64,000 nt of DNA from Fusobacteriaceae bacterium UBA2433 (GTDB lineage: Bacteria > Fusobacteriota > Fusobacteriia > Fusobacteriales > Fusobacteriaceae): contig DDQV01000122.1 in assembly GCA_002342785.1 (NCBI GenBank), forward strand, positions 18,752-82,751, written 5' to 3'. This document shows positions 602 to 22,242 of the stretch, in pieces. The notes beneath the pieces were generated by a model, which was not told the DNA's origin, searched no databases, and was given only the letters and a program-made list of their open reading frames with translations. Numbering within the stretch: position 1 is the stretch's first letter; each line of letters opens with the position of its first letter. A program made the position numbers and the translations under genes.

Positions 602-1075
602 TTAATATTCTATCCACTCTTTTCCTTCTGTACTATACTTATAACCCGTTCCTTGGCTTGATTCTTCATCAAATTTAACTGTCAAATCATCATTATCTGA
701 TTCAATCAATAATTCTATATTTCCTCCATACTTCATTTCTCCTCCAGTTTCTGCTGTTCTACTTCCACCTATTTTAGCAGTAATAGAACTTCCACTCGTA
801 TCTATTACTTTTTGTGATGCGTCATCCAATTTTGCAACTATTGCTCCCATAGTTGGAGCAGTTATACTTCCATCATCTGAATCTCTTATCATTGAATCAA
901 TAAACAATACTGATCCTGCCGTTCTTGCCGCTCCTAATAATGCAATTGCCTTAGCATCTTTAGCTTTAGCTAACTGCTCTCTTAACTTTGGTGCTAATGT
1001 TGTTGCAAGTATTCCGATTATTGCGATTACTACTAATAATTCAATTAGAGTGAATCCTTTTTTTAATCTCTTCAT
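602..1075 (-). CDS. pilA: Type IVa prepilin (probable major pilin)
   Basis: Short basic leader MKRLKKG|FTLIELLVVIAIIGILA with G-1/F+1/E+5 class III signal; strong GGAGG RBS; own promoter and terminator. Confidence 0.9.
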   Translation of the reverse strand: MKRLKKGFTLIELLVVIAIIGILATTLAPKLREQLAKAKDAKAIALLGAARTAGSVLFIDSMIRDSDDGSITAPTMGAIVAKLDDASQKVIDTSGSSITAKIGGSRTAETGGEMKYGGNIELLIESDNDDLTVKFDEESSQGTGYKYSTEGKEWIEY

Positions 1076-1194
1076 ATTCGTTCCTCCTATTAATTACGTT
1101 ACTTATTTTTGTTTCCTATTATAACATATTAACTAAAAAATAAAAATTCCTTTTTTTTTATTAATTTTTTTACTAAAATTTTTATTACTCTTAT

Positions 1195-1224
1195 ATTTTA
1201 TATGATATTAAAGTGTTATGTCAA
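1195..1224 (-). promoter_or_regulatory. Candidate sigma70 promoter of the pilin gene
   Basis: TTGACA-N18-TAAAAT on the minus strand; a second extended -10 (TGTTATAAT) lies at about 1119-1127. Confidence 0.55.
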
Positions 1225-1369: not shown

Positions 1370-2056
1370 TTAATTTTTTTCCATATATTTTTTAATTTTT
1401 CTTATACCTATCTCTTTGTATTTTTCATCTTTAGAGTTTAAGAGGATCCCCCAATATTTAAAAGCTTTCTCTAAATCTTTTCTATTTCCTTGTTTCTTAT
1501 ACCTTCTTTCATAGAGATAAGCTACCATATTTGTTAAAAGATCATCTCTAGTTTCATTGACTACCTTTTCAAAATTTATAAGTAATCCATCCATATTATT
1601 TTTAGAAGCTGCCATCATCCCTGCAAAATAATTTTTTAGAATTGAATTATCTGGATTATACTCTATCCCCTTCTCATATATCTCTGTGGCCAAATCAAAT
1701 CTTTTATAGATCTTAATAAGTCCTAAGATACTTCCACTAAAATTATAGTTTGTAATAAAATAAGGATCTAAATATGATATCTTATCGGAGTTGTTTTTTA
1801 TTTTTTTTATTACTATCTCAGGATCTCCTCCCTCTCCTACAGATAATATTTGATCGATCCATATAAATGCTGTTCCGACTTTTTTCATCCCCATAATTTT
1901 TAAAAGAAGGGTATTTTGATTCATTCCATCTGTACCCTTATATCCACTTTTTAATAAGATATCTTCATCTACCTTGAGATACGGATTTAAAAAAAATAAC
2001 AAAGCCAAACAACTGAGGACTATATATATTTTACTGTCTTTAATCAATAATATCAC
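1370..2056 (-). CDS. PilG/XapA-like membrane-anchored TPR-like protein associated with the ABC module
   Basis: N-terminal TM segment; IWI..I...G...I..LDP.F...Y.F.G..L.......A..IYEKG...NP pattern and TPR-like helices; follows the ABC ATPase and permease genes. Exact start uncertain. Confidence 0.6.
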   Translation of the reverse strand: MILLIKDSKIYIVLSCLALLFFLNPYLKVDEDILLKSGYKGTDGMNQNTLLLKIMGMKKVGTAFIWIDQILSVGEGGDPEIVIKKIKNNSDKISYLDPYFITNYNFSGSILGLIKIYKRFDLATEIYEKGIEYNPDNSILKNYFAGMMAASKNNMDGLLINFEKVVNETRDDLLTNMVAYLYERRYKKQGNRKDLEKAFKYWGILLNSKDEKYKEIGIRKIKKYMEKN

Positions 2057-2069
2057 ACCCTTTTTTCAT

Positions 2070-2822
2070 CTATAATCTTTTCTTTTGAAAAACTATATTA
2101 GTAGCAGTTATAACACAAGTTATATAGATAAAAACATATCCAAAGATCAATAAATAATTTGTATCTGTTGTTATTAGATGATCCCTATAATTTAATAGAT
2201 TAAATTTTGGTAAAATAATATATAACAGATCTAATATCCATTGAAATAAACTTCCAGTTAATTTTTCTGAGATAGCTTTTATCTCCATAACTCCATGTCC
2301 TAAAATATACGTAAACAAAGTAAAGATTGTAGAGGTCACAGTAGAATCTGAGATTATAGAAAAAAATATTCCTAAACTACTAAGGATAGATAGTTTTAAT
2401 CCTATAAAAAATAAAGCTCGTATATACCACCAGTCAAACTCTCCTTTGGTATATAAGATTATCCCTAATATTCCCCCCATAACAAATACATTACAAAATA
2501 CAGAATAGATTATCCCTAAGTTTATTCCTATAATATATTTAGATTTAGTCACAGCTTTGGTAAGAACCAGATATATAGATTTTTCTGTCACAGCTTTTAT
2601 CACATAGGTAGAAGATATATATACTGTTATAAGCATTATCAAAAATTCCGTAAAAAATAGTCCACTGTCTCGAATAACTCTTCCCCCTTCGTAGAGGGCT
2701 ACCTTATCTAATAAAGTTGTAAAAAATATAGATAAAACTCCAAAATATAAGATCCCATTAAACACCTTATTAGATATATTTTCCTTTAATGTATACTTTC
2801 CAATAGTCAGTATTTTTTTCAT
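2070..2822 (-). CDS. ABC-2 type transporter permease (PilI-like)
   Basis: About 6 TM segments; E....SIYLVLTK.V.KS.YI.G motif typical of ABC-2 permeases; adjacent to the ATPase gene. Confidence 0.85.
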   Translation of the reverse strand: MKKILTIGKYTLKENISNKVFNGILYFGVLSIFFTTLLDKVALYEGGRVIRDSGLFFTEFLIMLITVYISSTYVIKAVTEKSIYLVLTKAVTKSKYIIGINLGIIYSVFCNVFVMGGILGIILYTKGEFDWWYIRALFFIGLKLSILSSLGIFFSIISDSTVTSTIFTLFTYILGHGVMEIKAISEKLTGSLFQWILDLLYIILPKFNLLNYRDHLITTDTNYLLIFGYVFIYITCVITATNIVFQKKRL

Positions 2823-2854: not shown

Positions 2855-3622
2855 TTAATTAGTTCGTAGTTCAATCATTGTTTTTATAAAATAATCTTTC
2901 AATAAAAAATTATCCTGTTTTAATTCAATTTTTTTCATATCTAATACTTCTACTAACTTTCCTTTATTTATTATAGCTACCTTATCTGCTATATTAGCTA
3001 CATCTTCTAGTATATGGGTATTAAAAAATATTGTAGTTCCCTTAGATTTTAATTCTAATATTATTTCTATTACCATTTCACGGGCTAGAGGATCTAACCC
3101 AGACATAGGCTCATCTAAAAATAATAACTTAGGATCGTTTAATATTGCTTGTGCTATCCCAACTTTTTGAAGCATCCCCTTGGAAAATTTTTCTAGTCTA
3201 TCTTTTTTCCTAGAGATCAAATCTAATTTCGTTAATATTATATCTATTTTTTTATCTAATTTATTTTTAGGAATATTATAGAGTTCCCCGTAATATCTCA
3301 TTAGATCTATGAGTTTCATACTCTTTGGATAATAAGAAATTTCCGGAAGATAACCTACCTTTTCAAAATCTTTTCCCCTTAATCCCTTTTTTCCAAATAC
3401 CTCTATCTCACCTTTATCTGGTTTCATAAGTCCTAGGATACATTTTAATGTACTGGTCTTTCCAGATCCATTTAAACCTATTATAGAAAAAATATTTCCT
3501 TCCTCTACATCAAAGGAGATATTTTCTATCCCTATACTTTTATTTGATCCCTTCATCTTTTTAAATATATCTCTTTCCTTATAATCTAAAGATATATCTT
3601 TTACAGAAATAATTTTTTTCAT
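2855..3622 (-). CDS. ABC transporter ATP-binding protein (PilH-like)
   Basis: Walker A GLNGSGKT, signature FSKGMLQK, Walker B LLFLDEP, H-loop; likely start MKKII at 3622 behind an AAGGGG RBS (ORF track starts 3652). Confidence 0.92.
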   Translation of the reverse strand: MKKIISVKDISLDYKERDIFKKMKGSNKSIGIENISFDVEEGNIFSIIGLNGSGKTSTLKCILGLMKPDKGEIEVFGKKGLRGKDFEKVGYLPEISYYPKSMKLIDLMRYYGELYNIPKNKLDKKIDIILTKLDLISRKKDRLEKFSKGMLQKVGIAQAILNDPKLLFLDEPMSGLDPLAREMVIEIILELKSKGTTIFFNTHILEDVANIADKVAIINKGKLVEVLDMKKIELKQDNFLLKDYFIKTMIELRTN

Positions 3623-3671
3623 CTTAATTAACCCCTTTTCGTCATAATACATATTTTGACATAAACTATCG

Positions 3672-3765
3672 CAATATTCTATGTTTACGACAGTAAACTA
3701 ATAGTATATTGGTGATGCCCACATCGGGTAAGGTCTGACTTTAAAATAACGACAAAACCTGACTT
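3672..3765 (-). other. GC-enriched structured intergenic element between pilC and the ABC ATPase
   Basis: 16-bp interrupted hairpin 3672-3711 plus small alternative stems; 17/31 G+C at 3711-3741 in an AT-rich spacer; no known motif recognised. Confidence 0.4.
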
Positions 3766-3775
3766 CTTTTTTTTC

Positions 3776-3803: not shown

Positions 3804-3848
3804 TATTTTTTTTATCTTTTAATTATAATTTTTTTACTTTTTTTCATA

Positions 3849-5048
3849 TTATCCCACCACATCAGACATCTTAAATAATGGAAGGAACATGGCTATAATT
3901 AAAATTCCTACCCCTACTGCCATAAATAAAATTATTAAAGGTTCAAATGCAGCAAGTAAATTTCTAACTGCTTCCTCAAGTTCCATCTCAGTAAAATCTG
4001 CTACTTTTTCTAAAATTTCAGATAGTTGTCCACTTTCCTCCCCAACTTCTATCATATCTGTTACCATAGCTGGAAATTGTCCACTATCTGCTAGTGGCTT
4101 ATATATACTAGCTCCATCTCTTATACTATCTTTGGCTCCTAATATCGCTTCTGCAATCAATGTATTTCCTACAATCTCCGCAGCTATATCAAAAGACATA
4201 AGGATAGTTACTCCACTATTTAGAAGAGTAGACATAGTTCTTGTAAATCTAGCCATAGCTGTTTTTCTAACAAATGGTCCTAGGAGGGGCATCTTCAATA
4301 ATATAATATCAAAATATCTTTTTCCTTTAGGTTTTCCTATGATTTTTTTCATACCATAAAAAATTCCTACTACTCCTGCAAAGAATAGATACCAATATTT
4401 AGAAGCAATCTCACTGGCTCTCATAACCATTCTAGTAAGTAGCGGCATCTCAACTCCTGTTCCTTCAAATAACAACATAAATTTTGGAATTATAAAAGCT
4501 AACATGAAAAACATTACAACCATAGCTGTAAAAAATACTACAGATGGATAGATCATAGCTCCCTTTACCTTTCCTTTTATCTCCTCAGATTTTTCTAAAG
4601 ATGTAGCTACCTTCATAAGTACTACATCTAACATCCCTGAAGCTTCTCCTGCTTTTACCATACTTACATATAATTTATCAAAATATTTAGGATGTTTTGA
4701 TAGACACGCTGCTAAAGGCATCCCTGAACTTATCTCTTCTTTTATTTGACTTACAACCTCTTTCAATTTAGGATTTTGAATCTGAGATTCTAAAATTTCA
4801 AAACATCTGATAAGTCCTACCCCTGCATTTATCATGGTAGATAATCCCCTTGTAAAAACTGCTATATCTTTAGCTTTTACCCTTTGGAACATCCCTCCTT
4901 TTTTACTAAGTTTACTTTTTTTACTAGCTTTTACTAAGATTAATTTTTCTTGTCTCAATAATTTTTTTAATTCTACAGGAGAACTAGCTTCCATCTCTCC
5001 ATCTGTTTTTTTACCATGACTATCTAGGGCAATATATTTATATAACAT
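3849..5048 (-). CDS. pilC: Type IV pilus inner-membrane platform protein (T2SS F family)
   Basis: Two T2SSF repeats (AGEASGMLD..., GEESGQL...) and 3 TM segments; likely start MLYKY at 5048 (GGAG RBS). Confidence 0.93.
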   Translation of the reverse strand: MLYKYIALDSHGKKTDGEMEASSPVELKKLLRQEKLILVKASKKSKLSKKGGMFQRVKAKDIAVFTRGLSTMINAGVGLIRCFEILESQIQNPKLKEVVSQIKEEISSGMPLAACLSKHPKYFDKLYVSMVKAGEASGMLDVVLMKVATSLEKSEEIKGKVKGAMIYPSVVFFTAMVVMFFMLAFIIPKFMLLFEGTGVEMPLLTRMVMRASEIASKYWYLFFAGVVGIFYGMKKIIGKPKGKRYFDIILLKMPLLGPFVRKTAMARFTRTMSTLLNSGVTILMSFDIAAEIVGNTLIAEAILGAKDSIRDGASIYKPLADSGQFPAMVTDMIEVGEESGQLSEILEKVADFTEMELEEAVRNLLAAFEPLIILFMAVGVGILIIAMFLPLFKMSDVVG

Positions 5049-5071
5049 AATCCACACTCCAACCTATTTTT

Positions 5072-6796
5072 TTATGATAAAGTAACTCTCATCACCTCGT
5101 CTAAACTAGTTACTCCTAATATTGCTTTTTTTATTCCTGAATCTCTTAGAGTATCCATCCCTTTTTTTATTGCTAGATCTTTTATCTCTATACTAGTTGT
5201 AGTTTCAGAGATAAGATTTTTCATCTCATCATCGACTTCTAATATCTCATATATAACACTTCTTCCCTTATAACCTGTGTTATTACATTTTGAACAACCA
5301 GCTCCTATTTTAAAATCTACATCTCTATAATCATCTTTATTTATACCCATAGCTAATAATTTTTTATTTGCTTCATCATCTGTTTCTATACAATGAGGAC
5401 AAATTTTTCTAACTAATCTTTGAGCTATAATCATAGATACAGAAGCAGAGATCAAAAATGCTTCTACACCCATATTTAATAATCTATGGATTGTTGCAGA
5501 GGAATCATTTGTATGAAGAGTTGATAAAACTAGATGTCCTGTCAAAGCTGCTTTAATAGAGATCTCTGCAGTTTCTCCATCTCTTATCTCCCCTACCATT
5601 ATGATATCTGGATCTTGTCTCAAAAAACTTCTAAGAGTAGCAGCAAAGGTTAATCCTATATCTGGTCTACATTGTACTTGATTTATTCCTTCTAATTCAT
5701 ATTCTACTGGATCTTCTGCTGTGGATATGTTTACATGTTCCTCATTTAATTTATCTAATATAGAATATAAAGTTGTAGATTTTCCAGATCCAGTAGGCCC
5801 TGTCACTAATATAATTCCATATGGATCTTTAATTATTCTATTTATTGTTTTTAATGCTTTTTCATCATAACCTAAACTAGCCAGATCTAATTGAACAGAT
5901 CCCCTATCTAATATCCTCATTACTACCTTTTCTCCATGGATAGTTTTTAGAGTTGACACACGAAAATCAACTTGTCTATCACCCATTTTTATCCTAAATC
6001 TTCCATCTTGTGGGAGTCTTTTTTCCGATATATCTAGATCACACATAATTTTTATCCTAGATACTATTGCATTCATAATATGTTTAGGCATTTTTTTTAC
6101 AGTTATTAACAGCCCGTCTAATCTATATCTTATCCTTATCTCTTTTTCATAAGGTTCTATATGGATATCACTGGCTTGCAATTTTACAGCTTTTACTATT
6201 ATAGCATTTACACCTTTTACTACAGGTGCACTATCAGAACCCAAACTAGTAACTATATCTTCATCTTTACTGATATCCTCAATCTCTATATCTTCCTCTG
6301 CAAATTTATTTAATTCCTCTAAGACACTATCTGTTTGAGTCTCTGTTTTCAAATCTTTTTTATGAATATACCTTTCTAAATACTCAATTATATTAGTTTT
6401 CATTGCAAGTACTGGTTTAATAATCATATTGGTTTTCATTTGTAGTTCATCTATTAGAAATGTATCTTTTGGATTTTCCATGGCTATCATGAGTTTTTTT
6501 CCATTTATTCGTAAGGGAAGAACAACTTTTTCTCTCATATATCCTTCCGGCAAGATTGATAACACATCTAATTTTAAATCTTTTTCATCTATGACTTTTA
6601 CCTTTACTCTATTTTGTTCTCCTAAGGCATCTAACATATTTTCCCCATCTAAATAACCCATCTTTATGAGAATTTCACCTAATTTTTCTTTAGTTTTTTT
6701 CTGTTCTTCCAATGCTTCTTCTAAGGAAGCTCTTGTTATTAGATTTTTTTCTACCAGAATTTCTCCGATCCCTTGCCTTCTTTTCACTACTACCAT
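5072..6796 (-). CDS. pilB: Type IV pilus assembly ATPase (GspE/PilB)
   Basis: MshEN-like N-terminus (IGEILV...LEEALEEQ...LGEILI), Walker A GPTGSGKST, Asp box, AALTGHLVLSTLHTN, CxxC/CxxC Zn site; likely start MVVVK at 6796 (GAGGGG RBS). Confidence 0.95.
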   Translation of the reverse strand: MVVVKRRQGIGEILVEKNLITRASLEEALEEQKKTKEKLGEILIKMGYLDGENMLDALGEQNRVKVKVIDEKDLKLDVLSILPEGYMREKVVLPLRINGKKLMIAMENPKDTFLIDELQMKTNMIIKPVLAMKTNIIEYLERYIHKKDLKTETQTDSVLEELNKFAEEDIEIEDISKDEDIVTSLGSDSAPVVKGVNAIIVKAVKLQASDIHIEPYEKEIRIRYRLDGLLITVKKMPKHIMNAIVSRIKIMCDLDISEKRLPQDGRFRIKMGDRQVDFRVSTLKTIHGEKVVMRILDRGSVQLDLASLGYDEKALKTINRIIKDPYGIILVTGPTGSGKSTTLYSILDKLNEEHVNISTAEDPVEYELEGINQVQCRPDIGLTFAATLRSFLRQDPDIIMVGEIRDGETAEISIKAALTGHLVLSTLHTNDSSATIHRLLNMGVEAFLISASVSMIIAQRLVRKICPHCIETDDEANKKLLAMGINKDDYRDVDFKIGAGCSKCNNTGYKGRSVIYEILEVDDEMKNLISETTTSIEIKDLAIKKGMDTLRDSGIKKAILGVTSLDEVMRVTLS

Positions 6797-6922
6797 AATT
6801 GTCCCCTCTGTTAAAGTCATTACTTACTTTTATATCTTATATAATATATTATAATTGTCTTTTTTTCTACCCCTCACCTATAATTAACTTAATTTTCTAA
6901 ATTATAATTTTATTTTTATTTT

Positions 6923-9900
6923 TTATTCACTATTTCTATCTAAGATACTCTCTAATATAAGTTTACTATCACTTCCTTCACCGATTATCCTTATCTTACT
7001 TTCCCTTTGTTTTGTTTGATTTTCAACTGTAGCTTTAATCCCTAAAGATTTTGTGGGTATAAAATAAATTTTTGAAAAAATTTTTTCATGTCCCAATCTA
7101 TCCCAAACTGTAATTTTTAAATCTCCGCGACTTCCTCCATTAAATTTAGAAGTATCTATCTCTATCGTATTATCTATAGACTTACCTTGTATTGTAGAAA
7201 AACTATTTCCATTAAGACCATTTGAATTTTTCCCACTATTACCTGAATCTACTATTTTTCCTCCTATAGTAAAGACATAACTATATCCATCTATTCCAAC
7301 TAATTCTTTAAATAAAGATAGATCTATCTCGATCTTTTCTTCTACTATATCTCCAATGATTTTATCTTGTAGATAGGAAGTATTCACCCTGGTATCTAAT
7401 ATAAATTTAAATTTTACATCATCTCCCTCGACTCCCGATATACTTATTGGAGTAACTAAAATAACATTCATAGAATCTATTAGAAATTTATTATATCTGT
7501 CATCTATCTTGATCTCATTTGTAGAAGTTTCTAAAATATCAAGTAATAGATCTATATTTTTGTTTATATATATTTTTAAATATCTTATATCTGCACCTGT
7601 TCCATAAATTTTAGCAAATATAACCGGATTTATTGTTAATGAACCAGGTCCTCCCTTAGTGAACTTATATATCTCTCCATTATAGTTCACACTCAGATCT
7701 TTATCCCCAACTCTTTGAGTAGTTATATTTTCTCGACTTTTCACCTCTTCATAAACTTTCAAAGTCACATCTTTTGGTTTACTATTGTTTAGGGTAAGTA
7801 TTTCTTTTCTTATTATTTCATTTCCTGCTTTATCTTCTCCCTTTATATAAAATTCTATATCTCTTTCAATTTTACTAGGATCTTTTATTACAAAGTTATA
7901 AGTAACAGTATAAGTATCGATTAAACTTGTGTCTTCAGACCTTTTTATAGTTCCTACTAAGGAATCTATCATATCTAGATCTTCTATTTCTAATAAATAT
8001 CCGCCTTTTTCTTTTTCCCCAATCTCTTGTAGATACAAATTAAAATCTTTTATATCAAACGAAACTTCTATCTGATCTTTATCTTTTACATAGGTAACAT
8101 TACTATTATCTACACTGTTAACCTTATATTTTTTCATAAATGTTTTATTTATTATAGATACATTAGATATCTCTGGAGCTATTGTATCTACCACAATAGT
8201 AGTTTTAGCTAATGGAGTCTTATCATAATTTAGATCTAATATCTTATCAAAATTATTTTCACAGTAATCATCTATACTAATTAACTTACCACTCTTACTC
8301 ATCCCATAGACCTTACCTATATATTCTCCATCTGTTTTATGTTTTTGATCTATCTCAATCTCTCCATCTGTTTCTTTTATTCCTCCTGTATAAAATCCTT
8401 TAGGAGAATAGTGATAAAAAGTTGAAACTCCATAATAACTATTATTTAAATCTAGATCAGCTTTTGTTTTATTATATTTAAAGGCCAATATTCCACTCAG
8501 ATATCGATCATCTACCTTACTTAGTTCTATATTATAATTTTCATTGACATAATATTTTCCATCTGATAGATGAACAGCTATAGGATCATCATTTTTATCT
8601 AATATTGATATCTCAGGTACTATCTCTGTATTATCAATCTTTAATATATCAAATTTTTGATCTCCTATATTTCCATAATTATCCTCCATAGTATTTCTAA
8701 TACTTATAGTTTCGCAACTATCCTTTATTTTTATTTTTTCCCATCTAACTTTAAATTTATGTTTTCCTTCTTTTTCTATTATAGGTATCCCCCATCCTAT
8801 ATTTCCTATATTTCTATAGATATTATTTTTATTTAAATTTTTATCTTCCACTGTTAAAGTTATATCTATTAGATCTCCTGTTTTTACACAACTTCCTGAA
8901 TAATTTAAAATAGAACTAAATTTTGTGCTATTATCTATACTATATCCAGAATAATTATCTATCTCTGTATCTGTAAATAATTTATTACCATCTACTCTAA
9001 CCATAGATTTAAAAAACTCTTTCAATGTTGTGTTTACTAATTTTATCTCGGTTATCATAGGAGGTGTTAGATCTATTTCAACATCTTCTAAGATCTTAGT
9101 TTCGGTAAATAGATCGTTAGTTGCTGTAGCTTCTAAATTAATATATTCTATAGGTATCTCATCTAACTTCCCATCTCTTATTATATCCATCTCTTTATCG
9201 GTTAAAACAACTTTAAATTCATACCATCCATCTTCACCCAAACTCATATCTATACTATCTTTATTTCTATTAAATAATAAGGTCCCATCAGTTTTTAATA
9301 TATTTAAATTATAATCTTTAATTATATCTTGGATGATTATATCTTCTCCATCACCATTAGTTTCATAGTATCTAGATCTAGCTAAAAATTTTATAACTCC
9401 CCTTTTATCTACTATATTTAATTTAGGACAACTTCCAACTGGATCTTTGAACTCTACAACTATTTTTTTTCCTTGAACAGTGTATTGTCTATCCTCTATC
9501 TTAGCTTTTTTATTATCTATAGGATCATCTAAATTTTTTACTACTTTATCCATAGGAACATAATTTTTTCCATCAATTCCAACTAGATCTATCAATTTAA
9601 AATCTACTGTTCTTGTAGTTCCATCATATTTATTAAATGGTGTAATATAAGATAATCTCCATCTTTGAACAATTCCTATATTATTTATAGATTCTAATAA
9701 GGCCCCCCTTACATTTTCACCATCTTGTCCCATCTCATACATAAAAAAATTATTTTCCGTATTATAAAGTTTAAAATCAGTATGATATACGTCGGCTCTA
9801 TCTGATGGATCTATCCCTAATATAGGTATTTCACGATCATCCCACTCCTCCCAATAACTATTATTTTTATTTATTCCCCAAGAATATTTATATCCTAGAT

Positions 9901-11305: not shown

Positions 11306-11395
11306 TATTTCTTTACCTTTAGGTTTCTTTAAAATTCTAAATATAATTTTATCATAGTTTAATATTACTCCATTTGTATTTTGAAATCCTTCACT

Positions 11396-13135: not shown

Positions 13136-13170
13136 ATAGACTAGAAACATATTTTATGTTTCTAGTCTAT
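13136..13170 (-). terminator. Terminator between the two giant paralogs
   Basis: Perfect 15-bp arms ATAGACTAGAAACAT/ATGTTTCTAGTCTAT, followed on the minus strand by TTATTTT. Confidence 0.75.
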
Positions 13171-13202: not shown

Positions 13203-16200
13203 TTAATCTTCATTACTTCCATCTATACTATTTTCTATACTAAACTTACTATCATCTGTATCTCCAAATATATTTACTTTACTCTTTCTCTGTTTTGCTT
13301 CATCTTCTATTGTTGATGTTATTCCAGTAGGCTTAGTAGGAATAAAATAAGTTTTATCAAAAGTTTTTTCATTTCCTAATCTATCATAGACAGTAAAAGA
13401 TAAAGTTCCTTTTGCTCCCCCTATAAAATCAGAAGTATCAATTATCTTAATTCCACTTATAGAATTACCACTAATAGTAGTAGATGTTTTTCCTTCTAAG
13501 TCACTTTCAACAACTTTTTCAGAAGTTTTTCCTTCTACAGTAAAGATATATTCATATCCTTCTACACCTGATAGCTCCTCTATCTTAGAAAGATCTATCT
13601 CAACATTTTTACCATTCATACTTCCTATTATTTCATTATTTAAATAAGAGGTATTTACCTTAGTATCCACTACAAATTTAAATTCTTTAGGATTTCCCTC
13701 TACACTTGATACATTTATAGGAGTAACCCTTACTTCATTAACTCCTTCACCAAAACCAAAAGTAACTTCTATTACTTTTTCCTCGTCACCACCTGATACT
13801 TTTATAATTTTTTCCCCTTCTATCCTTCCATCTTTACCTATTGTTTGTATCTTTAATTTTCCTATCTTTTCATCTTCAGAACTACTCGATGGAATAGTCA
13901 CATAGATCCCTGGATTTGGGTTATTTGATCCCAACCCTCCCTTAGTAAATTTATATCCATCTTCTATTATATTTGATTTTTCCTTTTGATAAAGTTCTTC
14001 ATAGGTATTTATCTTAATATCCCTTGGTATACTTATAGTAACTTCTTTTGTTGTTTCATTTCCAGCCTTATCTACAACTACTATTGTAACCTTTACTGAC
14101 CCACCATCTTTTAAATCACTTCTTTTAACTTTTAATGAATAAATTATAGGGTTTGAACTATCATTAAAGGTTCCAATCTCTTCATTGTTTTTCCCTAATA
14201 ATTTGTGTCCCCCTTGTCCTTCTATAAACTCATTATTATTATAATTAAAATCTTCTATCTTAAAAGATAGATCAAAGTAATAATAATTTTCAATATCCTG
14301 ATCTGAACTTTCAATTGATTCTTTTATTGGTAAACTAATAATTCTAGGAGCTATTGTGTCTACCCTAATTACAATATTTTCTCCACCTAAATTATCCCCC
14401 ATTATTGTTTTGAAATCATTACTAGAATAATCTGTAATATCTTTTAATTTACCACTAATATTCATTCCATAAATTTTAGATCTATATTCTCCATCTGTCA
14501 AATGACTATCAGAGGTATCTATACTTACAGGAATAACACTACCTTCCTCTCCTCCTAAGTAAACATTTTCATCTCCATCTAACTTATAATAATATTCTGA
14601 ATCTCCATAATATATTTTATTGCCATCTTCATCTGTTTTTGAATCTGCTTTAGTTTTATCATAATTTAATATTCCTATTCCAGCTAATAGATCTTTATTA
14701 GTAGTCCCTAAATCAATACTATAGTTGGAATTTACATAGTATATCTCTTCTATAGGTTCTATATCTTTTACTGTTGGAACTACTTCTATATCATTATTAT
14801 CTACATTTAAAATTTTTCCCTCTTGAGAAGCTTCAATTTCATATTCATTTTTAATATTATTAATTACTTTTATTTCAGAATCTGAAACACTTATTTCATA
14901 CCAAGTAACTTTAAATTTATTTGTTTCATCTTCTGAATCTGATGAAATCTCTATTATACTTGGTTTTATATCTATAAGATCACTACCTTGATAAATTTTT
15001 ATCCCCTTTAAAATATTATTTTGATAAAGATTTTTTCCCTCTACTATTAATTCAATAGATATTTTATCTCCAGATTTTCCAGTACTTCCAGTTGTCGGCA
15101 GACCAAAACTTTCCTCTACTTCATGATCATATCCTGAATATTTCAATATATCATCGGAAGAAAAAGTTTTATCTTTATCTAGTGAATACATTGTATCTAA
15201 AAAATTAAAGAGAGTTTTATTTACTAGAGTTACATCTGTAATTAAGGGAGTAGATAGATCTACTATTACATCTGTTAATATCTCTGTTTTGTTAAATAAA
15301 TCAGTGACTATAGTCGCTTCTAAATTAATTTTTTCTGTTGATTTTACAGTTGTTGATTCTTTTAGTATATCCATCTCTTCATCTGTTAATATAGCCTTAA
15401 ATTCATACCAACCTTGATCTCCAAATGTATCGGTCAAAGTATCTGTTGAATCAGATAGTTCTTTTAACTTAGTGTTACTGATTTTTAACTCTATCCCCTC
15501 ATCATTTGTTCCACTCAATAATTTTTTTAATCCTAGGTCTCCTAATTTTATCCTATATATATTTTCTTCAGATTTTTCAAAATCTGTATTCCCTAAAAAT
15601 TCATCCAATAAATCAGATGTTTCAGAACTATTATTAAGTTCATACCAAGTATCAGATCTATCAGATACAATTGCTTTAAATTTATCTTTTTCAATATTAA
15701 TATTAGTTTTATCTACTATTAAATTTAATGTTGTAGAAGATTTTGTAGTATTCCCACTAATAATAGCTTCTTTTTCAAAATTTGTTAATTCTACTTTATA
15801 GTTTTGATCTTCATCTATAGTATATCTCGCCTTATCAATATATTCTAAGATATCTACATTAGAGTTATTTGTAATTGTTACATCAGATTTCACCCTTCCT
15901 GCTAAAGCTTGAGAGATTAAATTTTTAGTAACTCTATTTTCTAGCCAACCTTCATCAGATAAACTCATCGTAATATTCTTTGGACTAAATAAAAAGTTAT
16001 TATTACTATCTAATACATCTAACTTATATTCATTTATCATTTTTTCTACAACAATAGGTTTATTATCTTCATCGAATTCATTATACCTTGCTTTCCCTCT
16101 AAAAGTTATTCTGCCATTACCCTCTACTAAATTTAATTTTAAATTATCTACACTTGGATCTTTAAATTCTAACGCTAACTTTTCTTCCTTTACTGTATAT

Positions 16201-19200
16201 TGTTTATCCTCAACTTCATTTAAATTTTTTATCTCTCTAGTAATATTAATTTTATCTTTTCCTATAAGATTTACTAGTTCAAAATCAATAGTTCTAGTTG
16301 TACCGTCATACTCATTGAATGGTGTCAAATAAGACAGCTCCCACCTTTGAATAATTCCTAAGTTGTTCATAGATAAAGTTAAAGCTTTACTTACATGCTG
16401 TCCTTCATTACCCATCTCATACATGAAGAAGTTATTAGCAGTATTATAGTATTTAAAATCTGTATGGTAAATCTCTTTTTCATCAGAGGGGTATTCACCT
16501 AATATAGGGACTTCGTTGTCATCATATTCTGTCCAATAATTACTGTTATCTCTTTTTCCATTGGTATAATAATATTCTAAAGTTAAATCTCCATAATTAG
16601 AATCTGGTTTTATCTTAATCTTTTCATATTTTTTTAAATCCTTATCTATTGTTTTTTCAACAGTATTTCCCCTCTTCCTTACATGGAAAATACCATTTAG
16701 ATCTATATTGTCTGGCATATCTTTAAAATTGCTATTCAATTTTGCATATAACTTTTCTAAAACATCCCCACTACTATAATTTCCACCTGGTATTTTAGAA
16801 ACTCTATCACCATCCATATTCTCATCAGTCAAGAAAATTATCATCTTCTCTGATGGCATATATGCGTTTTGAGGTACAGCACCTGAGTTTCCTTTTTCAA
16901 CTATCTCCCCTGAATAACTTAAATATCTTCCATTAGTTCTTAATTTATCTATAGCATAATGAAGACCCCAAGCACTATTTTCTTGATCGTAATCATAACC
17001 CCATAGAGCATTTATATTATCAAATGCATCTATTAACTCTTCTAAATCATTTTCACGAGATGAAGTTTCTCCTAACTTAGATCCATCAAACCATTTATCT
17101 TTATAAACTGCCATATAATCTCGATCATATAAAGTAACACTATTACGCCAGTCTCCTGTGGGGTATAGTTCTTTCTCTTTATTATAAAAATTATAGTTAT
17201 AATAATAGTTATGATTTTGCTCTGGCCCAAAGGTAATTAAATTATATTTCACATCAAATCCCCTATCTAATAGTTCTTGTCCAAAAGCTGTTAATCCATT
17301 TTTTACTGCATCTATCTCCTCTTGCATAGAACCTGAATTATCTATAACAAAAACTATATCTAATGGAAATAAAAATCTTTTCATATCAGATCCTTTTAAT
17401 GTTATATTTCCAGCTTCTCCTATCCCCTCTTTTTTTCCTGTACCTTCATTTATTTCTTCCATATTAAAACTACCAAATTTAAGATTTTCAACCTTTAAAT
17501 CTATCTCCCTTTCCATCTTGGTAATGAAGTTTACATTTACTCGGATATCTCCCTTATCTTCTCCTATAGTTATAAAATCTATCTTATGTATATTGTTCTC
17601 TTTCTCAAATTCCTCACTGGCAATATCTGATATATCCATCTTAAATTCACTTTTATTTTCACGGGTGATAACTTTGTATCTTCCATCATGACCTCTTTTT
17701 ATACTATAAAATTGAATAATATAATCATCTACCGGCAGCCCAACTATTCGAAGTTCATTGTTGGTTTGTTCATACGAAATTATTGCATTGTTAAATGTCA
17801 TAGTTTTACTGGTAGTAGCTCCTAGAACTATATCCACATAATCTTGGTTATAAGTTTCTTCATTTATATTTCCGTATAAAAATGCTCCTAATTTTTTATT
17901 TCCCTCAACTGTTGGTTCAATTAAATTTATAGGATTACTATCTCTATAAGGATTCCAAGAATAATCTTTACTAGTACTTTTTTTAGTTACTCGAAATATA
18001 ACCTTGTCATAACTAAGGATCTCTCCATTTGTATTCAGCGGACCTTCATTCCATCTATAGGTTACTTTATTTCCTATTTCATTTATTTTTTCTATACCGT
18101 CACCTTTATCATCTGTATAAAATATAAGTTCATCCTTATCTTCATCTTTTAAAATTCCTTTAGATTCGGTGATGGTTTTTTCAATTATTAAACCTTTCGA
18201 ATTGCTCTCTTCTGGATATGCCCATAATCCATTGCTATAAACAAACTCTTTTATTAAACTATGGGTATTTTCACCTTTTAAATAATCATCTAAACTACTT
18301 GCATAACTTATAGTTTTTAATTGTTTATAACCCTTTCTTTCAGGACTTAATACTCTATCTTCAATATTATAATCTTGTTTTTTAAATCCTCTTGCAGGAT
18401 TAAATTCAAACATCACCCATTGATAAGCGTCTCCCGTATCTAAGTTTACTGGAGTAGGTTCAATATATTTTCCTATTAAATCTTTATCTTTATAAGTTTC
18501 ATCTAAAGTTGAATATCTTCTACTCCGAAAATTTATTTCTCTAATTTTTCCATTTTTTTGTTCAAACTCTGTCTCATAACTTCCTATCCATTTATAAACA
18601 TATTTATTTTCATCATTAATATTTATTTGGTTATCTATAACTTCATATTCCTCTCCACCTATCCAAATTTTATTTAACTCAATCTTCTCAGTATTTATAT
18701 ATTTATAATTTTCTTTTTTTTCTTCTCCGTCTCTTGTTTCTATTAAATCTAAAATATCTAATTTTTTTAAATCTTCAGTCGTTATGGTTATCATATTTAA
18801 TTTAATTTTTTTATACTCAGATATATCAATATCTTCAAGCCAAATAGGATCATCTAAAGAAGCTATGTTTTTTCCAATAAAATCCAAGCTTCCTTCATAA
18901 GTTACAGCCACATAATTTCCAGTTTCATTATTGTTTCTATATCTTAAAGTATAAAAATCTAAATTGTATTTTTTATTATCTTCTAATCCCATAATTTCAA
19001 ATTTACCCTCTATAAATCTTGCTTTTATTCCATCTATTTCTAGTTCTTGTGTAGATTTATTATTTTCAAATACAAAATCTCTATAGTTATTACCACTTAA
19101 ATCAAAATCATTTTCTTCAATATTTTTTATTGGACGTAGTTCATCGTGTTTAGATCCTGTGTATAACCTAAACAATACCTCTTGATGTTTATATGCTTTT

Positions 19201-21740
19201 ATATGTTCTAATTCATATTTATCTTCAAAGGTAAATGTATTCTTAGATGATTCTAAATCCTGTTCTTTAAAATTAGATATAGGAACAGGTATCATATAAT
19301 TTTCATTTATTTTATTTTTCAAAACATTATTTTCTTCAACTGTTAATTCAAATTTGCCCTTCTCAGGCTCACCAATATTTGAATCTATCTTAAATTCTAT
19401 TATAGATTTAGGTTCACCCTCATATTTATATCTTTCTTTTTCTTCTGGGATGAATTTACCATCAACACCTATAATATCTGATCTCAATAATTCATCTAAG
19501 CTACCATCTTCATCAATTGTTTTTATAGTTTCTAATCTTTGGTAAAAATCTATTTTATATCTTCCAGACTCTTTTTCATATTTCAACAAGTTTTCCTTTA
19601 TTATTTGTGAATAGATCCATTGTTTACTAGGTTTTGGAGTAGGATTTGGATTTATTATATTTTTTCCTTCGAAAATTAAACTACTTTCATAGGTAACAAC
19701 CACATAGTTTCCAGTATTGTTATTATTTCTATATCTTAAAGTATAAAAATCTAAATTATAGGATTTATTACTTTCTAATCCAATAATTTCAAATTTACCC
19801 TCTATGAACCTACCCTTTATTCCATCTTTTTCTACCTCTTGTTCAGATTTATTATTTTCAAAAACAAAATCTATATAACTATTATTAGTCAAACTATTGT
19901 CTTCTATTTTTTTTATTGGTCTGAGTCCATATTTTCTATTTCCTGTATAAAGTCTAAAAACTACTTCTTGATATCCATAACCTGATTTATTTTCATCATC
20001 TTCATCATATGTAAATATATTTTTAGTAGGATCTGAATTAACTTCTATAAAATTAGTTGTAGGAGCAGGTATTTTATATCCTTCACTTATTATCTCTTCA
20101 TCCTCAAATATAAAAATATTTCTCATATATTTAAATGTTCCATCAAAAGGTTCCCTTTTATTCTTAGTTAATTTAAATTCAACCATGGGTCTTTTTTCAC
20201 CGCTATATTCGTATACTTCTTTATTCTTTTGAGTAAAGTTATCTTCTTCAAAAGAACCATCAGAACTTAAAAATTCCTTTAAACTAGTTTCTACTTCTAA
20301 AGATTTTAGCTTTTCTATATCTTCATAAAAACTTATATCATAATAATATAGCATAACTCCAAAAATTTCTGAACTCGTTTTATCTAATTTTTCTTTTTCT
20401 ACCTGAGAATAGATATACTGTTCTCCAATTTCTATGTTTGATTCTGACTTTATTGGTTCTATATAAATTCCAAATAAATTATTTACAGAGTGTTTTTTAT
20501 CATTACTCAAAGTTCTTTCAGCATCAAAAGAAACTTTCCTCTCTTTACCTTCTTCCTCTACAAATTTAGTAATATAAGTTCCTTCCCAGCCATATATATA
20601 TTGTTTCTTATCCCCTTGTCCAGGTACTTTTTCTATTGTTTTATGATCACTGTCTAGAGTATAAACTACTCCATCTATCATGACTTCATTTAAAACAACT
20701 TGTTTCATCTCTATTTTTGAATATTCTTCATCATCATTCTCTCTAGTCTCTCTTATATTTGAAAGTTCCATAGATTTTACATCCATATTTGTTATACTGA
20801 TCAAATTTATCTCTATTTCATTATAATTATCTGAACTAATACCTTCTATCCTAGTTCTAATTACAGCTCGATCTTCATCATCTGAAATCTCAGTTTTACC
20901 TTCAAATTCTAAGGTGTTTTCATAAGTAGCCACAACATAATTTTTATCACCATTACTTCCATATCTCAAAGTATAAAAATCTAAATTATAAGATTCATTA
21001 TTTTTTAAACCTATAATTTCAAGTTTTTCATCTTTAAATTTAGCTATTATTCCATCTTTACTAATTGTCTCTTCACTTCCATCATTTTCAAATACAAAAT
21101 CTACATAACTATTATCAGTTAAATTATTGTCTTCTATTTTTTTTATAGGTCTTATTCCCTCTTGTTTATTGCCTGTATAAAGTCTAAAAACAACTTCTTG
21201 ACTATCGTATTTTCCACTATTACTACTAACTTCAGTATAGGTAAATGTATTTGTTTCACCACTCATTTCTTTAAAATCAGTTGTAGGAGCAGGAATATTA
21301 TAATTCTGATCTATTATAGTTTCCTCTTTATTCTTTTTATAGTAAATATATTGAAATGTCCCATTATAATTAGAATTTTTATTTTTAGATAATTCAAATT
21401 TAATCATTGATCTATTTTCACCATAATAAAAATAATCATAATCAGAATTATAATTATTATTATTATTATTATTTTTGGAAAAATCCGTGCTGCTATAAAT
21501 CTCTTTAGATTCCAATATTTCTTCTATACTATAATTTTCCGTTTCTAAAGAAGTAGCTTTATCTAATTGATTACTAAAATCAATATAGTAAATATATCCA
21601 TGATTTCCTGTTTCATTAGTTGTTTTTAAATCACTTTTTTTTACCTGAGTATATAACCATTGATTAGCTGAAAAAACACTCATACTCAGCAGTAAAAATA
21701 ATATACATATCTTATAAACTTTCATTATTTTCTTCTTCAT
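13203..21740 (-). CDS. Giant (2845 aa) secreted repeat protein with vWA domain and Ig-like modules; putative adhesin (paralog 1)
   Basis: Signal peptide (about 25 aa); three ~250-aa A repeats, two B domains and a diverged fourth A repeat; vWA with intact MIDAS DNSGS; DTIAP/DKAGN Ig-like motifs; AAGGAGG RBS 8 nt upstream. Confidence 0.8.
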   Translation of the reverse strand: MKKKIMKVYKICILFLLLSMSVFSANQWLYTQVKKSDLKTTNETGNHGYIYYIDFSNQLDKATSLETENYSIEEILESKEIYSSTDFSKNNNNNNNYNSDYDYFYYGENRSMIKFELSKNKNSNYNGTFQYIYYKKNKEETIIDQNYNIPAPTTDFKEMSGETNTFTYTEVSSNSGKYDSQEVVFRLYTGNKQEGIRPIKKIEDNNLTDNSYVDFVFENDGSEETISKDGIIAKFKDEKLEIIGLKNNESYNLDFYTLRYGSNGDKNYVVATYENTLEFEGKTEISDDEDRAVIRTRIEGISSDNYNEIEINLISITNMDVKSMELSNIRETRENDDEEYSKIEMKQVVLNEVMIDGVVYTLDSDHKTIEKVPGQGDKKQYIYGWEGTYITKFVEEEGKERKVSFDAERTLSNDKKHSVNNLFGIYIEPIKSESNIEIGEQYIYSQVEKEKLDKTSSEIFGVMLYYYDISFYEDIEKLKSLEVETSLKEFLSSDGSFEEDNFTQKNKEVYEYSGEKRPMVEFKLTKNKREPFDGTFKYMRNIFIFEDEEIISEGYKIPAPTTNFIEVNSDPTKNIFTYDEDDENKSGYGYQEVVFRLYTGNRKYGLRPIKKIEDNSLTNNSYIDFVFENNKSEQEVEKDGIKGRFIEGKFEIIGLESNKSYNLDFYTLRYRNNNNTGNYVVVTYESSLIFEGKNIINPNPTPKPSKQWIYSQIIKENLLKYEKESGRYKIDFYQRLETIKTIDEDGSLDELLRSDIIGVDGKFIPEEKERYKYEGEPKSIIEFKIDSNIGEPEKGKFELTVEENNVLKNKINENYMIPVPISNFKEQDLESSKNTFTFEDKYELEHIKAYKHQEVLFRLYTGSKHDELRPIKNIEENDFDLSGNNYRDFVFENNKSTQELEIDGIKARFIEGKFEIMGLEDNKKYNLDFYTLRYRNNNETGNYVAVTYEGSLDFIGKNIASLDDPIWLEDIDISEYKKIKLNMITITTEDLKKLDILDLIETRDGEEKKENYKYINTEKIELNKIWIGGEEYEVIDNQININDENKYVYKWIGSYETEFEQKNGKIREINFRSRRYSTLDETYKDKDLIGKYIEPTPVNLDTGDAYQWVMFEFNPARGFKKQDYNIEDRVLSPERKGYKQLKTISYASSLDDYLKGENTHSLIKEFVYSNGLWAYPEESNSKGLIIEKTITESKGILKDEDKDELIFYTDDKGDGIEKINEIGNKVTYRWNEGPLNTNGEILSYDKVIFRVTKKSTSKDYSWNPYRDSNPINLIEPTVEGNKKLGAFLYGNINEETYNQDYVDIVLGATTSKTMTFNNAIISYEQTNNELRIVGLPVDDYIIQFYSIKRGHDGRYKVITRENKSEFKMDISDIASEEFEKENNIHKIDFITIGEDKGDIRVNVNFITKMEREIDLKVENLKFGSFNMEEINEGTGKKEGIGEAGNITLKGSDMKRFLFPLDIVFVIDNSGSMQEEIDAVKNGLTAFGQELLDRGFDVKYNLITFGPEQNHNYYYNYNFYNKEKELYPTGDWRNSVTLYDRDYMAVYKDKWFDGSKLGETSSRENDLEELIDAFDNINALWGYDYDQENSAWGLHYAIDKLRTNGRYLSYSGEIVEKGNSGAVPQNAYMPSEKMIIFLTDENMDGDRVSKIPGGNYSSGDVLEKLYAKLNSNFKDMPDNIDLNGIFHVRKRGNTVEKTIDKDLKKYEKIKIKPDSNYGDLTLEYYYTNGKRDNSNYWTEYDDNEVPILGEYPSDEKEIYHTDFKYYNTANNFFMYEMGNEGQHVSKALTLSMNNLGIIQRWELSYLTPFNEYDGTTRTIDFELVNLIGKDKINITREIKNLNEVEDKQYTVKEEKLALEFKDPSVDNLKLNLVEGNGRITFRGKARYNEFDEDNKPIVVEKMINEYKLDVLDSNNNFLFSPKNITMSLSDEGWLENRVTKNLISQALAGRVKSDVTITNNSNVDILEYIDKARYTIDEDQNYKVELTNFEKEAIISGNTTKSSTTLNLIVDKTNINIEKDKFKAIVSDRSDTWYELNNSSETSDLLDEFLGNTDFEKSEENIYRIKLGDLGLKKLLSGTNDEGIELKISNTKLKELSDSTDTLTDTFGDQGWYEFKAILTDEEMDILKESTTVKSTEKINLEATIVTDLFNKTEILTDVIVDLSTPLITDVTLVNKTLFNFLDTMYSLDKDKTFSSDDILKYSGYDHEVEESFGLPTTGSTGKSGDKISIELIVEGKNLYQNNILKGIKIYQGSDLIDIKPSIIEISSDSEDETNKFKVTWYEISVSDSEIKVINNIKNEYEIEASQEGKILNVDNNDIEVVPTVKDIEPIEEIYYVNSNYSIDLGTTNKDLLAGIGILNYDKTKADSKTDEDGNKIYYGDSEYYYKLDGDENVYLGGEEGSVIPVSIDTSDSHLTDGEYRSKIYGMNISGKLKDITDYSSNDFKTIMGDNLGGENIVIRVDTIAPRIISLPIKESIESSDQDIENYYYFDLSFKIEDFNYNNNEFIEGQGGHKLLGKNNEEIGTFNDSSNPIIYSLKVKRSDLKDGGSVKVTIVVVDKAGNETTKEVTISIPRDIKINTYEELYQKEKSNIIEDGYKFTKGGLGSNNPNPGIYVTIPSSSSEDEKIGKLKIQTIGKDGRIEGEKIIKVSGGDEEKVIEVTFGFGEGVNEVRVTPINVSSVEGNPKEFKFVVDTKVNTSYLNNEIIGSMNGKNVEIDLSKIEELSGVEGYEYIFTVEGKTSEKVVESDLEGKTSTTISGNSISGIKIIDTSDFIGGAKGTLSFTVYDRLGNEKTFDKTYFIPTKPTGITSTIEDEAKQRKSKVNIFGDTDDSKFSIENSIDGSNED
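21453..21473 (-). repeat. (AAT)7 in-frame microsatellite encoding poly-Asn
   Basis: Seven ATT units on the plus strand; protein SKNNNNNNNYNSD. Confidence 0.85.
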
Positions 21741-22242
21741 CAGTATCTCCTCCTTTATTCAGTTCTATTTTTATTTTTTCTGCTTTATCAAATTCATCTG
21801 TACTTCTATATAGATTATAAAGCCTTATATTTATTTTCTTAGTCTCATCTTTTGATACTTTATTTTTTAACTCTACCAATGTTGGTATACTAAACTTTCT
21901 ACTGTATCTATATCTATCTATCTCGTCTAATAAATCATCTACTTTTTTTACTTTTTTTATCTCATCTGTTTCATCTAAAATTTCATTTTTTATTATTTCT
22001 AAAGCTTTATCTTCCTCTGCTTCTTTTTCCTTTCTTTCTTTTATAATAATTTTATTTCTTTTTATAGTTTCTTTTAATTCTTGTTTTGCTTCTTTTAGAT
22101 CTTGTTGTAATTTTTTTTCTTTTTCAACTTTTAATATTTCTTGCCTACTTTTCATTACTACCTCTTCTTTTTTTGGACGCAATATAAACAATATTAAAAG
22201 CCCAAACAATATTACTATTAATTTTAAATATTTTTTTCCCAT
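21712..22242 (-). CDS. Hypothetical protein with N-terminal membrane anchor and coiled coil
   Basis: GGAGG RBS; hydrophobic N-terminus; E/K-rich helix; 3' end overlaps the start of the giant gene by 29 nt. Confidence 0.75.
   Translation of the reverse strand: MGKKYLKLIVILFGLLILFILRPKKEEVVMKSRQEILKVEKEKKLQQDLKEAKQELKETIKRNKIIIKERKEKEAEEDKALEIIKNEILDETDEIKKVKKVDDLLDEIDRYRYSRKFSIPTLVELKNKVSKDETKKINIRLYNLYRSTDEFDKAEKIKIELNKGGDTDEEENNESL

Follow-up and report, generated by a model that had tools for sequence, protein, structure and literature searches.

Giant von Willebrand factor A-domain proteins with a conserved C-terminal tail as candidate PilY1 analogs encoded beside type IVa pilus genes in Fusobacteriaceae

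The window analysed here, a stretch of 64,000 nt from Fusobacteriaceae bacterium UBA2433 (contig DDQV01000122.1, positions 18,752 to 82,751, assembly GCA_002342785.1), contains a block of minus-strand genes (602-22242) in which the type IVa pilus genes pilB and pilC stand beside two very large paralogous proteins, here termed the giants G1 and G2 (Table 1). On balance, we favour a reading in which G1 and G2 represent a Fusobacteriaceae-restricted class of Sec-exported non-pilin proteins, which would act as pilus-dependent adhesins analogous to PilY1/PilC and dock via a conserved C-terminal tail. Gene content, domain folds, the common tail, synteny and co-occurrence were computed here, whereas docking, passage through the secretin PilQ, tip location and adhesion of the giants are what we infer from them. 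Four traits appear to match the function of PilY1/PilC, namely a constant C-terminus combined with a variable N-terminus, occurrence as paralog pairs, gene position beside minor pilins or pilB, and restriction to genomes that encode the pilus.

The C-terminal tail and its distribution

All giants and all of their short relatives end in a motif of ~40 aa, [IV]x[IV]K[AS]..G..(K/R)xR(S/T)x[IV]x[IV]....Fx[IV]E..E-COOH, which in the genome of the window is carried by G1 and G2 only. A hidden Markov model (HMM) of this tail was built without the proteins of two other genera of the family, g10 and g15, and run on ~8000 open reading frames (ORFs). Its four top non-self matches, with E-values (E) of 1.4e-4 to 0.37, were a 346-aa Sec-signal protein encoded between pilT and pilB in g10 and three Sec-signal proteins of 404, 454 and 474 aa encoded beside a minor-pilin trio in g15. 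The matches lie at, or at most ~25 residues from, the C-terminus of proteins that are otherwise unrelated to the giants. In hhalign comparisons only the two C-terminal tails align (E 8e-4, probability 24%), and whole-protein homology between the C-terminal-domain proteins of Psychrilyobacter and those of g10 and g15 was accordingly rejected. Two further g10 matches outside the model, which came from the family-wide search described below and were checked afterwards, are each located beside their own minor-pilin trio, and a tail protein is encoded directly upstream of pilB in all five g10 genomes. No tail protein contains a Pfam domain above threshold. One g10 genome (G097) encodes three tail proteins, one between pilT and pilB and two by separate groups of four pilin-like genes each (L099:5060-9652, L100:3182-7996), an arrangement that resembles the multiple minor-pilin/PilY1 clusters of Myxococcus.

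A six-frame search of the family with the tail profile identified tail proteins in 21 genomes belonging to six genera (g1, g2, g9, g10, g11 and g15) and in none of the nine other genera. These are exactly the six of 15 genera that encode a full-length PilB ortholog (54-63% identity outside Psychrilyobacter) together with the pilus cassette containing an ATP-binding cassette (ABC) module described below. The giants themselves form a small family of ~20 proteins among 5.8 billion, some of them annotated as 'vWA domain-containing protein [Psychrilyobacter]'. A profile of the C-terminal domain recovered only ~30 clusters among 1.84 billion representatives, and a search of genome contigs for related loci returned a single locus, in an Ilyobacter metagenome-assembled genome (MAG). 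As far as these sequence searches reach, the giant/tail family is confined to a few marine genera of Fusobacteriaceae.

Domain architecture of the giants

The mature form of G1 has a mass of ~325 kDa and an isoelectric point of 4.6. Both giants have Sec type I N-termini (MKKKIMKVYKICILFLLLSMSVFS|AN). In G1, the signal peptide is followed by repeat modules in the order A-B-A-A-B (aa 27-1106), a C region (aa 1107-1400), a von Willebrand factor A (vWA) domain (aa ~1455-1800), a string of immunoglobulin (Ig)-like domains, the C-terminal domain and the tail. G2 has the order A-B-C-vWA-Ig-C-terminal domain-tail and is 36-37% identical to G1 across the shared part. The A-domain copies, including the single one of G2, are 42-52% identical to the first copy. 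No match to the A/B repeats was found in Pfam, and a search of PDB sequences with the A-domain profile was also empty, which agrees with the unrecognised repeat domain proposed in an earlier note on this DNA.

Pfam matches to vWA are sub-threshold in the giants (E 4e-4 to 3e-3; for G1, VWA/VWA_2 at E 4e-4 to 6e-4), and the G1 vWA profile matched the vWA domain of ITIH4 in PDB at E 0.075. A Foldseek search with an AlphaFold2 model of this region (predicted local distance difference test score, pLDDT, of 61) returned integrin beta I-like domains and ITIH1 at E ~1e-6. By its modelled fold and its metal ion-dependent adhesion site (MIDAS), G1 belongs to the vWA superfamily. The D and the first S of the MIDAS are invariant across eight homologs.

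Modelled with AlphaFold2, one of the short proteins of the family (pLDDT 65) forms a string of Ig/FN3-like sandwiches without a propeller, and the best structural matches of this C-terminal-domain model were FN3 arrays and the stalk regions of SiiE and MpIBP. None of G1, G2, fragments of the two or the tail proteins matched PF05567, the family of the PilY1 propeller, when E-values as high as 10 were allowed; the check by structural model took in the C-terminal domain and left out G1 aa 1960-2560 and the A/B repeats. The earlier description of the giants as Sec-signal proteins with vWA and Ig-like modules and no PilY1 propeller is thus borne out, with the fold search confirming a vWA domain that Pfam places below threshold. 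Because the propeller is missing, we file the giants as a non-homologous analog of PilY1 and not as members of its family.

Several other classes of surface protein were considered and rejected. A type I-secreted repeats-in-toxin (RTX) adhesin does not fit, as the giants have a Sec signal and no RTX/HemolysinCabind match and the ABC-2 module of the locus comes without a membrane fusion protein or outer membrane factor. Type V autotransporters were rejected on account of the C-termini (...DGSNED or ...DRNSE), the Ig-like model and the lack of an autotransporter match in Pfam, modular type IV pilins on account of the Sec type I N-termini and the lack of an N_methyl match in G1 and G2, and lipoproteins because no lipobox is present. 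In sum of these searches, the giants contain no beta-barrel, lipobox, LPXTG or type I secretion system (T1SS) features.

A model for docking and display

In the mechanism that we propose, the constant C-terminal end, consisting of the Ig-like domain and the three-strand tail, would dock on a minor-pilin priming complex in the periplasm, probably via beta-strand complementation. Strand complementation with a minor pilin would be the most economical docking mechanism, and both the predicted complementation of PilX and PilY1 and the attachment of the TcpF peptide to TcpB point in this direction. Extension of the pilus driven by PilB and PilC, perhaps activated by cyclic di-GMP (c-di-GMP), would then take the docked protein through the single PilQ secretin and place the variable N-terminal payload at or near the pilus tip, where it could act as an adhesin. 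In G1, this payload would comprise three A/B repeat modules, the MIDAS-bearing vWA domain and an Ig-like stalk. The 176-aa transmembrane (TM)/coiled-coil protein encoded upstream of G1 is possibly an inner-membrane periplasmic chaperone or tether for the giants.

Genomic neighbourhoods and alternative roles

Wherever the sequence of a Psychrilyobacter genome or contig extends far enough, two paralogous Sec-signal proteins with a common C-terminal region of ~285 aa occupy the slot from rpsR to pilB. In the window, which belongs to a marine Psychrilyobacter genome, and in genomes G121 (Psychrilyobacter atlanticus) and G122 these proteins are giants, and the gene order is rpsR-small TM protein-two giants-pilB. 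Genomes G125, G127, G129 and G130 and metagenomic contigs L089-L091 encode a pair of ~430-aa proteins in the same slot, each combining a variable N-terminus of ~150 aa with the last ~285 aa of the giants, which is the only part of the giants kept; the small TM gene is absent there. G122 additionally encodes a third giant of 2475 aa (G122:C14, ~59.6-69 kb; L040/L041), which is accompanied by a separate small TM protein and, 1 kb upstream, by a separate pilin gene.

Small TM/coiled-coil proteins of 157-177 aa are encoded ahead of the giants of Psychrilyobacter and of metagenomic contigs and are usual outside the genus; in the Ilyobacter MAG, one is encoded between the two giants. Compared in pairs, these small proteins resemble one another weakly (E 3e-4 to 3e-3), and the 176-aa protein of the window has no Pfam or NCBIfam match. 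This TM/coiled-coil protein is a conserved partner specific to the giants. A pilin-like gene lies ~1 kb downstream of the giant on metagenomic contig L092. Downstream of other metagenomic giants, a conserved 162-aa protein is encoded that combines a zf-HC2 anti-sigma-like zinc finger at its N-terminus with a TM segment. This protein is absent from the window and may be a dedicated regulator.

Outside Psychrilyobacter, the neighbourhoods differ. In the Ilyobacter-like genus g11, giants or tail proteins of 1150 aa are encoded beside groES/EL; in g2 and several metagenomic contigs, giants are located downstream of the rnf operon, and the giants of g9 are found elsewhere. These positions bear on the suggestion that the giants are envelope or surface proteins independent of the pilus, whose adjacency to pilB would reflect an insertion after rpsR specific to Psychrilyobacter and whose tail would anchor them elsewhere, for example to the outer membrane or the small TM protein. 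Consistent with this suggestion are the empty rpsR-pilB junction of g11 and its groES/EL-linked genes, the rnf-linked giants and the terminator-like hairpin that follows G1; moreover, it is the small TM protein and no pil gene that is conserved next to the giants. However, such a role would leave unexplained the g10 and g15 tail proteins in pil operons or by minor-pilin trios, among them two loci that were predicted blind, as well as the confinement of the tail to the cassette genera, and the giants lack the outer-membrane, lipoprotein, cell-wall and T1SS features named above. We therefore judge it improbable but do not lower our estimate further, because half of the genera hold these genes off pil loci and the tail statistics are modest.

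The same synteny, tail and co-occurrence evidence would also apply if the giants and short tail proteins were substrates released by a pilus acting in a type II-like manner, with the tail as a secretion signal read by the minor-pilin tip. The proteins would then end up in the medium or the biofilm matrix, off the pilus. The genome encodes one secretin and no other obvious route for giants with a Sec signal, and precedents exist in BsaC of Clostridium perfringens (PMC11580942) and in TcpF secreted via TcpB (PMC9565799, PMC10120004). The layout of a constant C-terminus and a variable N-terminus and the position by minor-pilin trios are nevertheless closer to PilY1-type tip proteins, and an adhesin on a long Ig-like stalk is most sensible if anchored. 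Release in this form seems unlikely to us.

Several observations weigh against the pilus-docked adhesins that we favour. Outside Psychrilyobacter the giants do not adjoin pilB, and in g2, g9, g11 and most metagenomic contigs they lie away from pil genes altogether. The tail similarity is short and its individual matches are weak (hhalign probability 24%), and the tail is modelled as three short strands with pLDDT below 50; strands of such low confidence would be expected of a segment that folds on a partner. As modelled, the C-terminal domain is a generic Ig-like string. The six cassette genera may form one clade, and the co-occurrence would then not reflect independent events. Furthermore, a cargo of ~325 kDa would need to pass through PilQ, the hairpin between G1 and G2 suggests that G1 is transcribed separately from pilB, and PF05567 was not found across 131 genomes of the family in a search without a positive control, which leaves its absence at the genome level unproven.

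The earlier note had asked whether homologs of the giants consistently flank pilB and pilC, and would count their occurrence mostly away from pil genes against its reading. In the neighbourhoods examined this holds for Psychrilyobacter, but adjacency to pilB/pilC is not general, because homologs outside this genus mostly lie elsewhere. The proposed tie to the pilus itself receives support from the common tail, the PilY1-like gene position in g10 and g15 and the strict co-occurrence with the cassette, a firmer footing than adjacency alone.

The interrupted reading frame of G2 and strain comparison

Because of a single in-frame TGA, G2 is called as two ORFs of 554 and 1460 aa. The earlier description of G2 as a ~2045-codon paralog of G1 thus holds with respect to paralogy, but the reading frame is not intact and the MIDAS is broken (DNSKY). 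The same TGA is present in the independent assembly of a second strain (L097:20310-20312). Between this strain and the window, the pil/giant block (window 3205-22360) is 98.0% identical and the flanking housekeeping genes (window 22438-31069) are 99.7% identical. Since the split of the two strains, the 1460 codons past the TGA have acquired no stop and no indel, and their ratio of non-synonymous to synonymous substitution rates (dN/dS) is 0.34, based on 19 synonymous and 27 non-synonymous substitutions. The shared TGA and the downstream constraint suggest either that the codon is read through, so that translation continues, or that the nonsense allele arose very recently.

That G2 is instead a decaying pseudogene in this lineage, with G1 as the sole working adhesin, has in our estimation somewhat less than an even chance. 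The TGA at a Trp position and the loss of the MIDAS serine in the same lineage are in line with decay, as are the orthologs in two other Psychrilyobacter species, which are uninterrupted and retain DNSGS. Against decay stand the presence of the TGA in two strains ~2% apart across the block and the 1460 downstream codons without a new stop or indel at a dN/dS of 0.34. An alternative genetic code was rejected, since every other gene of the block is open under table 11, and a single TGA is preferred. Selenocysteine is unlikely, as the aligned residue is Trp and no obvious GC-rich hairpin follows the codon (judged by eye, no folding).

G1 differs between the two strains by 24 in-frame gap columns and has a dN/dS of about 0.5. 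From these alignments, the putative adhesin locus changes faster than its flanks, or recombines. At the head of the block, between the terminator of rpsR and the gene for the small TM protein, the second strain also contains ~745 bp (L097:8636-9380) that are missing in the window (22360-22438), representing an insertion/deletion polymorphism.

Pilus machinery and the ABC module

The pilB and pilC genes of the block are accompanied elsewhere in the same 2.77-Mb assembly by further pilus genes. On contig C13 are pilD, the genes of three minor pilins (C13:847-1437, 1421-2005 and 2042-2908), pilM/N/O/P-like genes and the gene of the only secretin in the genome, and contig C174 encodes pilT. The genes pilD, pilT and pilMNOPQ, which the earlier note had reported as lacking from the window, are thus accounted for. 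PilD, the secretin and PilT were assigned by family search and the pilM/N/O/P-like ORFs by position and size only; on this basis, the genome has a complete type IVa pilus gene set with a single secretin. The N-terminus of PilB (window 6620-6820) contains an MshEN c-di-GMP-binding domain (NF053729, 66.3 vs a cut-off of 38) and c-di-GMP may therefore activate pilus assembly. The closest NCBIfam models of the platform protein PilC are GspF and PilC, each below its equivalog cut-off.

In every case examined in the six genera, pilB is followed by pilC, the ABC ATPase, the ABC-2 permease, the 228-aa protein and one or more pilins, in this order and often with pilD next, whether or not a giant is nearby. 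The 228-aa protein follows the permease in all six genera with 33-78% identity. In g11, the cassette directly follows rpsR. As the cassette is conserved regardless of the giants, we regard the ABC module as a core part of the pilus operon and not as an exporter of the giants; the earlier note had called it dedicated. The 228-aa protein had been described there as a tetratricopeptide repeat protein, an assignment that its TPR_1 match (E 0.62) does not sustain. In other Psychrilyobacter genomes, the cassette is followed by three or four tandem diverged pilin genes (L037:8718-11206, L047:4106-7092, L089:9205-11039), compared with one in the window.

An ABC ATPase, an ABC-2-type permease and a small third protein are also encoded inside the pil cluster of Myxococcus xanthus (PilG-PilH-PilI) and in a Geobacter cluster by pilA, and PilG, PilH and PilI are required for piliation in Myxococcus (PMC3724824, PMC6060248). 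The ABC ATPase, the permease and the 228-aa protein are, by analogy, the counterparts of PilH, PilI and PilG, respectively. The likeness is one of gene content; the order found here (pilC-ABC-permease-228aa-pilin) differs, as does the phylum.

Organization of the locus

According to the ORF map, nine genes in one orientation span from the rpsR terminator to a convergent gene (Table 1). All modules listed in the earlier note were recovered on the minus strand by the ORF map and family matches, and its upstream bound at rpsR coincides with a real terminator. Beyond the pilin, the contig encodes a convergent glutamate-cysteine ligase-like gene, and because this next gene is convergent the block ends after the pilin. 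The hairpin between G1 and G2 (one site observed vs 0.0 expected in shuffled sequences) may act as a terminator or attenuator and thereby divide the block into separate transcription units. Together with the promoter-like site of the pilin, this makes the former description as one block an overstatement. No match to a sigma-54 -24/-12 promoter was found near the pilin or anywhere in window 1-23000. A gene for a sigma-54-dependent response regulator is located 4 kb upstream of the block (window 26916-28358).

Table 1. Features of the pil/giant block and of related metagenomic loci. Positions refer to the window unless a contig is named.
Feature	Position	Strand	Description
rpsF-ssb-rpsR intrinsic terminator	22442..22468	-	11-bp stem with 4 GC pairs, then TTTTTGT; upstream limit of the block
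176-aa protein	21712..22242	-	One N-terminal TM helix and K/E-rich coiled coil; 29-nt overlap with G1 start
G1	13203..21740	-	2845 aa; Sec-type signal peptide
G1 N-terminal repeats	18423..21662	-	Three ~260-aa A domains and two ~140-aa B domains (self-comparison, alignment)
MIDAS D-N-S-G-S of G1 vWA	17343..17357	-	Intact start
G1 C-terminal domain	13203..14063	-	~285 aa; Ig-like sandwiches
G1 tail	13206..13343	-	...GITSTIEDEAKQRKSKVNIFGDTDDSKFSIENSIDGSNED; tail HMM, hhalign, alignment
Hairpin between G1 and G2	13136..13170	-	16-bp perfect stem, T-rich tail; terminator-like
G2	6923..13060	-	2045 codons; G1 paralog
In-frame TGA of G2	11396..11398	-	Codon 555; aligned to Trp of G1
G2 tail	6926..7063	-	Tail HMM E 9e-25
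pilB	5072..6820	-	Type IVa pilus extension ATPase; T2SSE E 1e-140; TIGR02538 684.5 bits vs cut-off 675.65
pilC	3849..5057	-	Platform protein; T2SSF 203 bits, E 1e-60
ABC ATPase	2855..3652	-	DrrA/GldA-like, ABC-2 type; ABC_tran E 1e-26; NCBIfam matches generic ABC only
ABC-2 permease	2070..2822	-	PF12679 29.7 bits vs cut-off 27.2
228-aa protein	1370..2056	-	N-terminal TM segment, rest helical; no Pfam/NCBIfam family match
Candidate sigma-70-like promoter of pilin	1195..1224	-	TTGACA-18-TAAAAT; 11/12 positions, consensus match only
Candidate type IVa major pilin	602..1075	-	157 aa; 7-residue leader MKRLKKG|FTLIE; N_methyl E 3e-9; TIGR02532
162-aa zf-HC2 protein	L093:17498-17986; L094:17977-18465; L096:2345-2833 and 17719-18207		Follows metagenomic giants

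Comparison with known adhesins and secreted proteins

Like the PilY1/PilC proteins of Pseudomonas, Neisseria and Myxococcus, the giants are Sec-exported non-pilins encoded with pil genes, and their tail relatives are found by minor-pilin trios or pilB. [quoted passage not shown] The two groups share the conserved C-terminal and highly variable N-terminal part, the latter often comprising vWA with a MIDAS, as well as the predicted mode of docking, and in both a single genome can encode several paralogs or clusters, as with PilC1/PilC2 and the three PilY1 proteins of Myxococcus. They differ in that PilY1/PilC contain a seven-bladed beta-propeller with a calcium site (PF05567), whereas the giants contain an Ig-like string and a ~40-aa tail. 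Furthermore, the giants are 2-2.5 times longer, contain the unrecognised A/B repeats and are paired with a small TM/coiled-coil protein. The giants of the window adjoin pilB while the minor pilins are encoded on contig C13, and outside three genera the giants and tail proteins do not adjoin pil genes.

A short terminal peptide of TcpF acts as the docking and secretion signal, which is hooked on TcpB (PMC9565799). In both TcpF-TcpB and CofJ-CofB, a protein exported by Sec binds the tip minor pilin through a short and flexible peptide at one of its ends (PMC9565799, PMC10120004), as we propose for the tail. In these systems, however, the signal is N-terminal, the pili are of type IVb (Vibrio, enterotoxigenic Escherichia coli) and the cargo is small, whereas the candidate signal described here is C-terminal and would serve a type IVa pilus with cargo of up to ~325 kDa. 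BsaC, a vWA protein of Clostridium perfringens with a Sec signal, is secreted in a manner dependent on type IV pili (PMC11580942). PilB of Streptococcus sanguinis also represents a vWA/MIDAS adhesive module delivered by a type IV pilus, but this protein is itself a pilin and has a class III signal peptide, whereas the two giants have no pilin domain and start with ordinary Sec signals. The type I-secreted proteins SiiE, MpIBP and LapA resemble the giants in being very long and acidic and in combining an adhesive module with many Ig-like domains in a row. Their export signals are RTX or C-terminal T1SS signals without a Sec signal, and they depend on TolC, a membrane fusion protein and an ABC exporter of the fused type; the giants, in contrast, have a Sec signal and no RTX, and the ABC-2 module is conserved without them.

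Implications

Little is understood of the way in which type IV pili and type II secretion systems recognise and carry proteins other than pilins. To our knowledge, the N-terminal peptide of TcpF/CofJ, which belongs to type IVb pili, is the sole linear signal defined so far. A wider reading of our data is that the tail represents a linear signal, portable between proteins, for docking to and export by a type IVa pilus, which would complete a fold of the minor-pilin tip complex by strand insertion and would replace the PilY1 propeller in a whole group of Fusobacteriaceae genera. We put this forward as plausible but less likely than not; if true, cargos ranging from 350 aa to 325 kDa would be loaded on the pilus and through the secretin by the same short segment. 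The novelty of the locus would lie in a class of proteins that is defined by the tail and stands in for PilY1, with the giants of the window as its most elaborate members, and not in an ABC-coupled system specific to the giants. The PilGHI-like ABC module, as judged by analogy, would represent a conserved pilus component outside Myxococcota.

If correct, a propeller-less substitute for PilY1 with a short tail and interchangeable payloads would provide a simple, testable handle on cargo loading by type IVa pili. Psychrilyobacter and its relatives are abundant in the guts of marine invertebrates, and if the reading that we favour is true, the giants would be likely adhesins of these bacteria.

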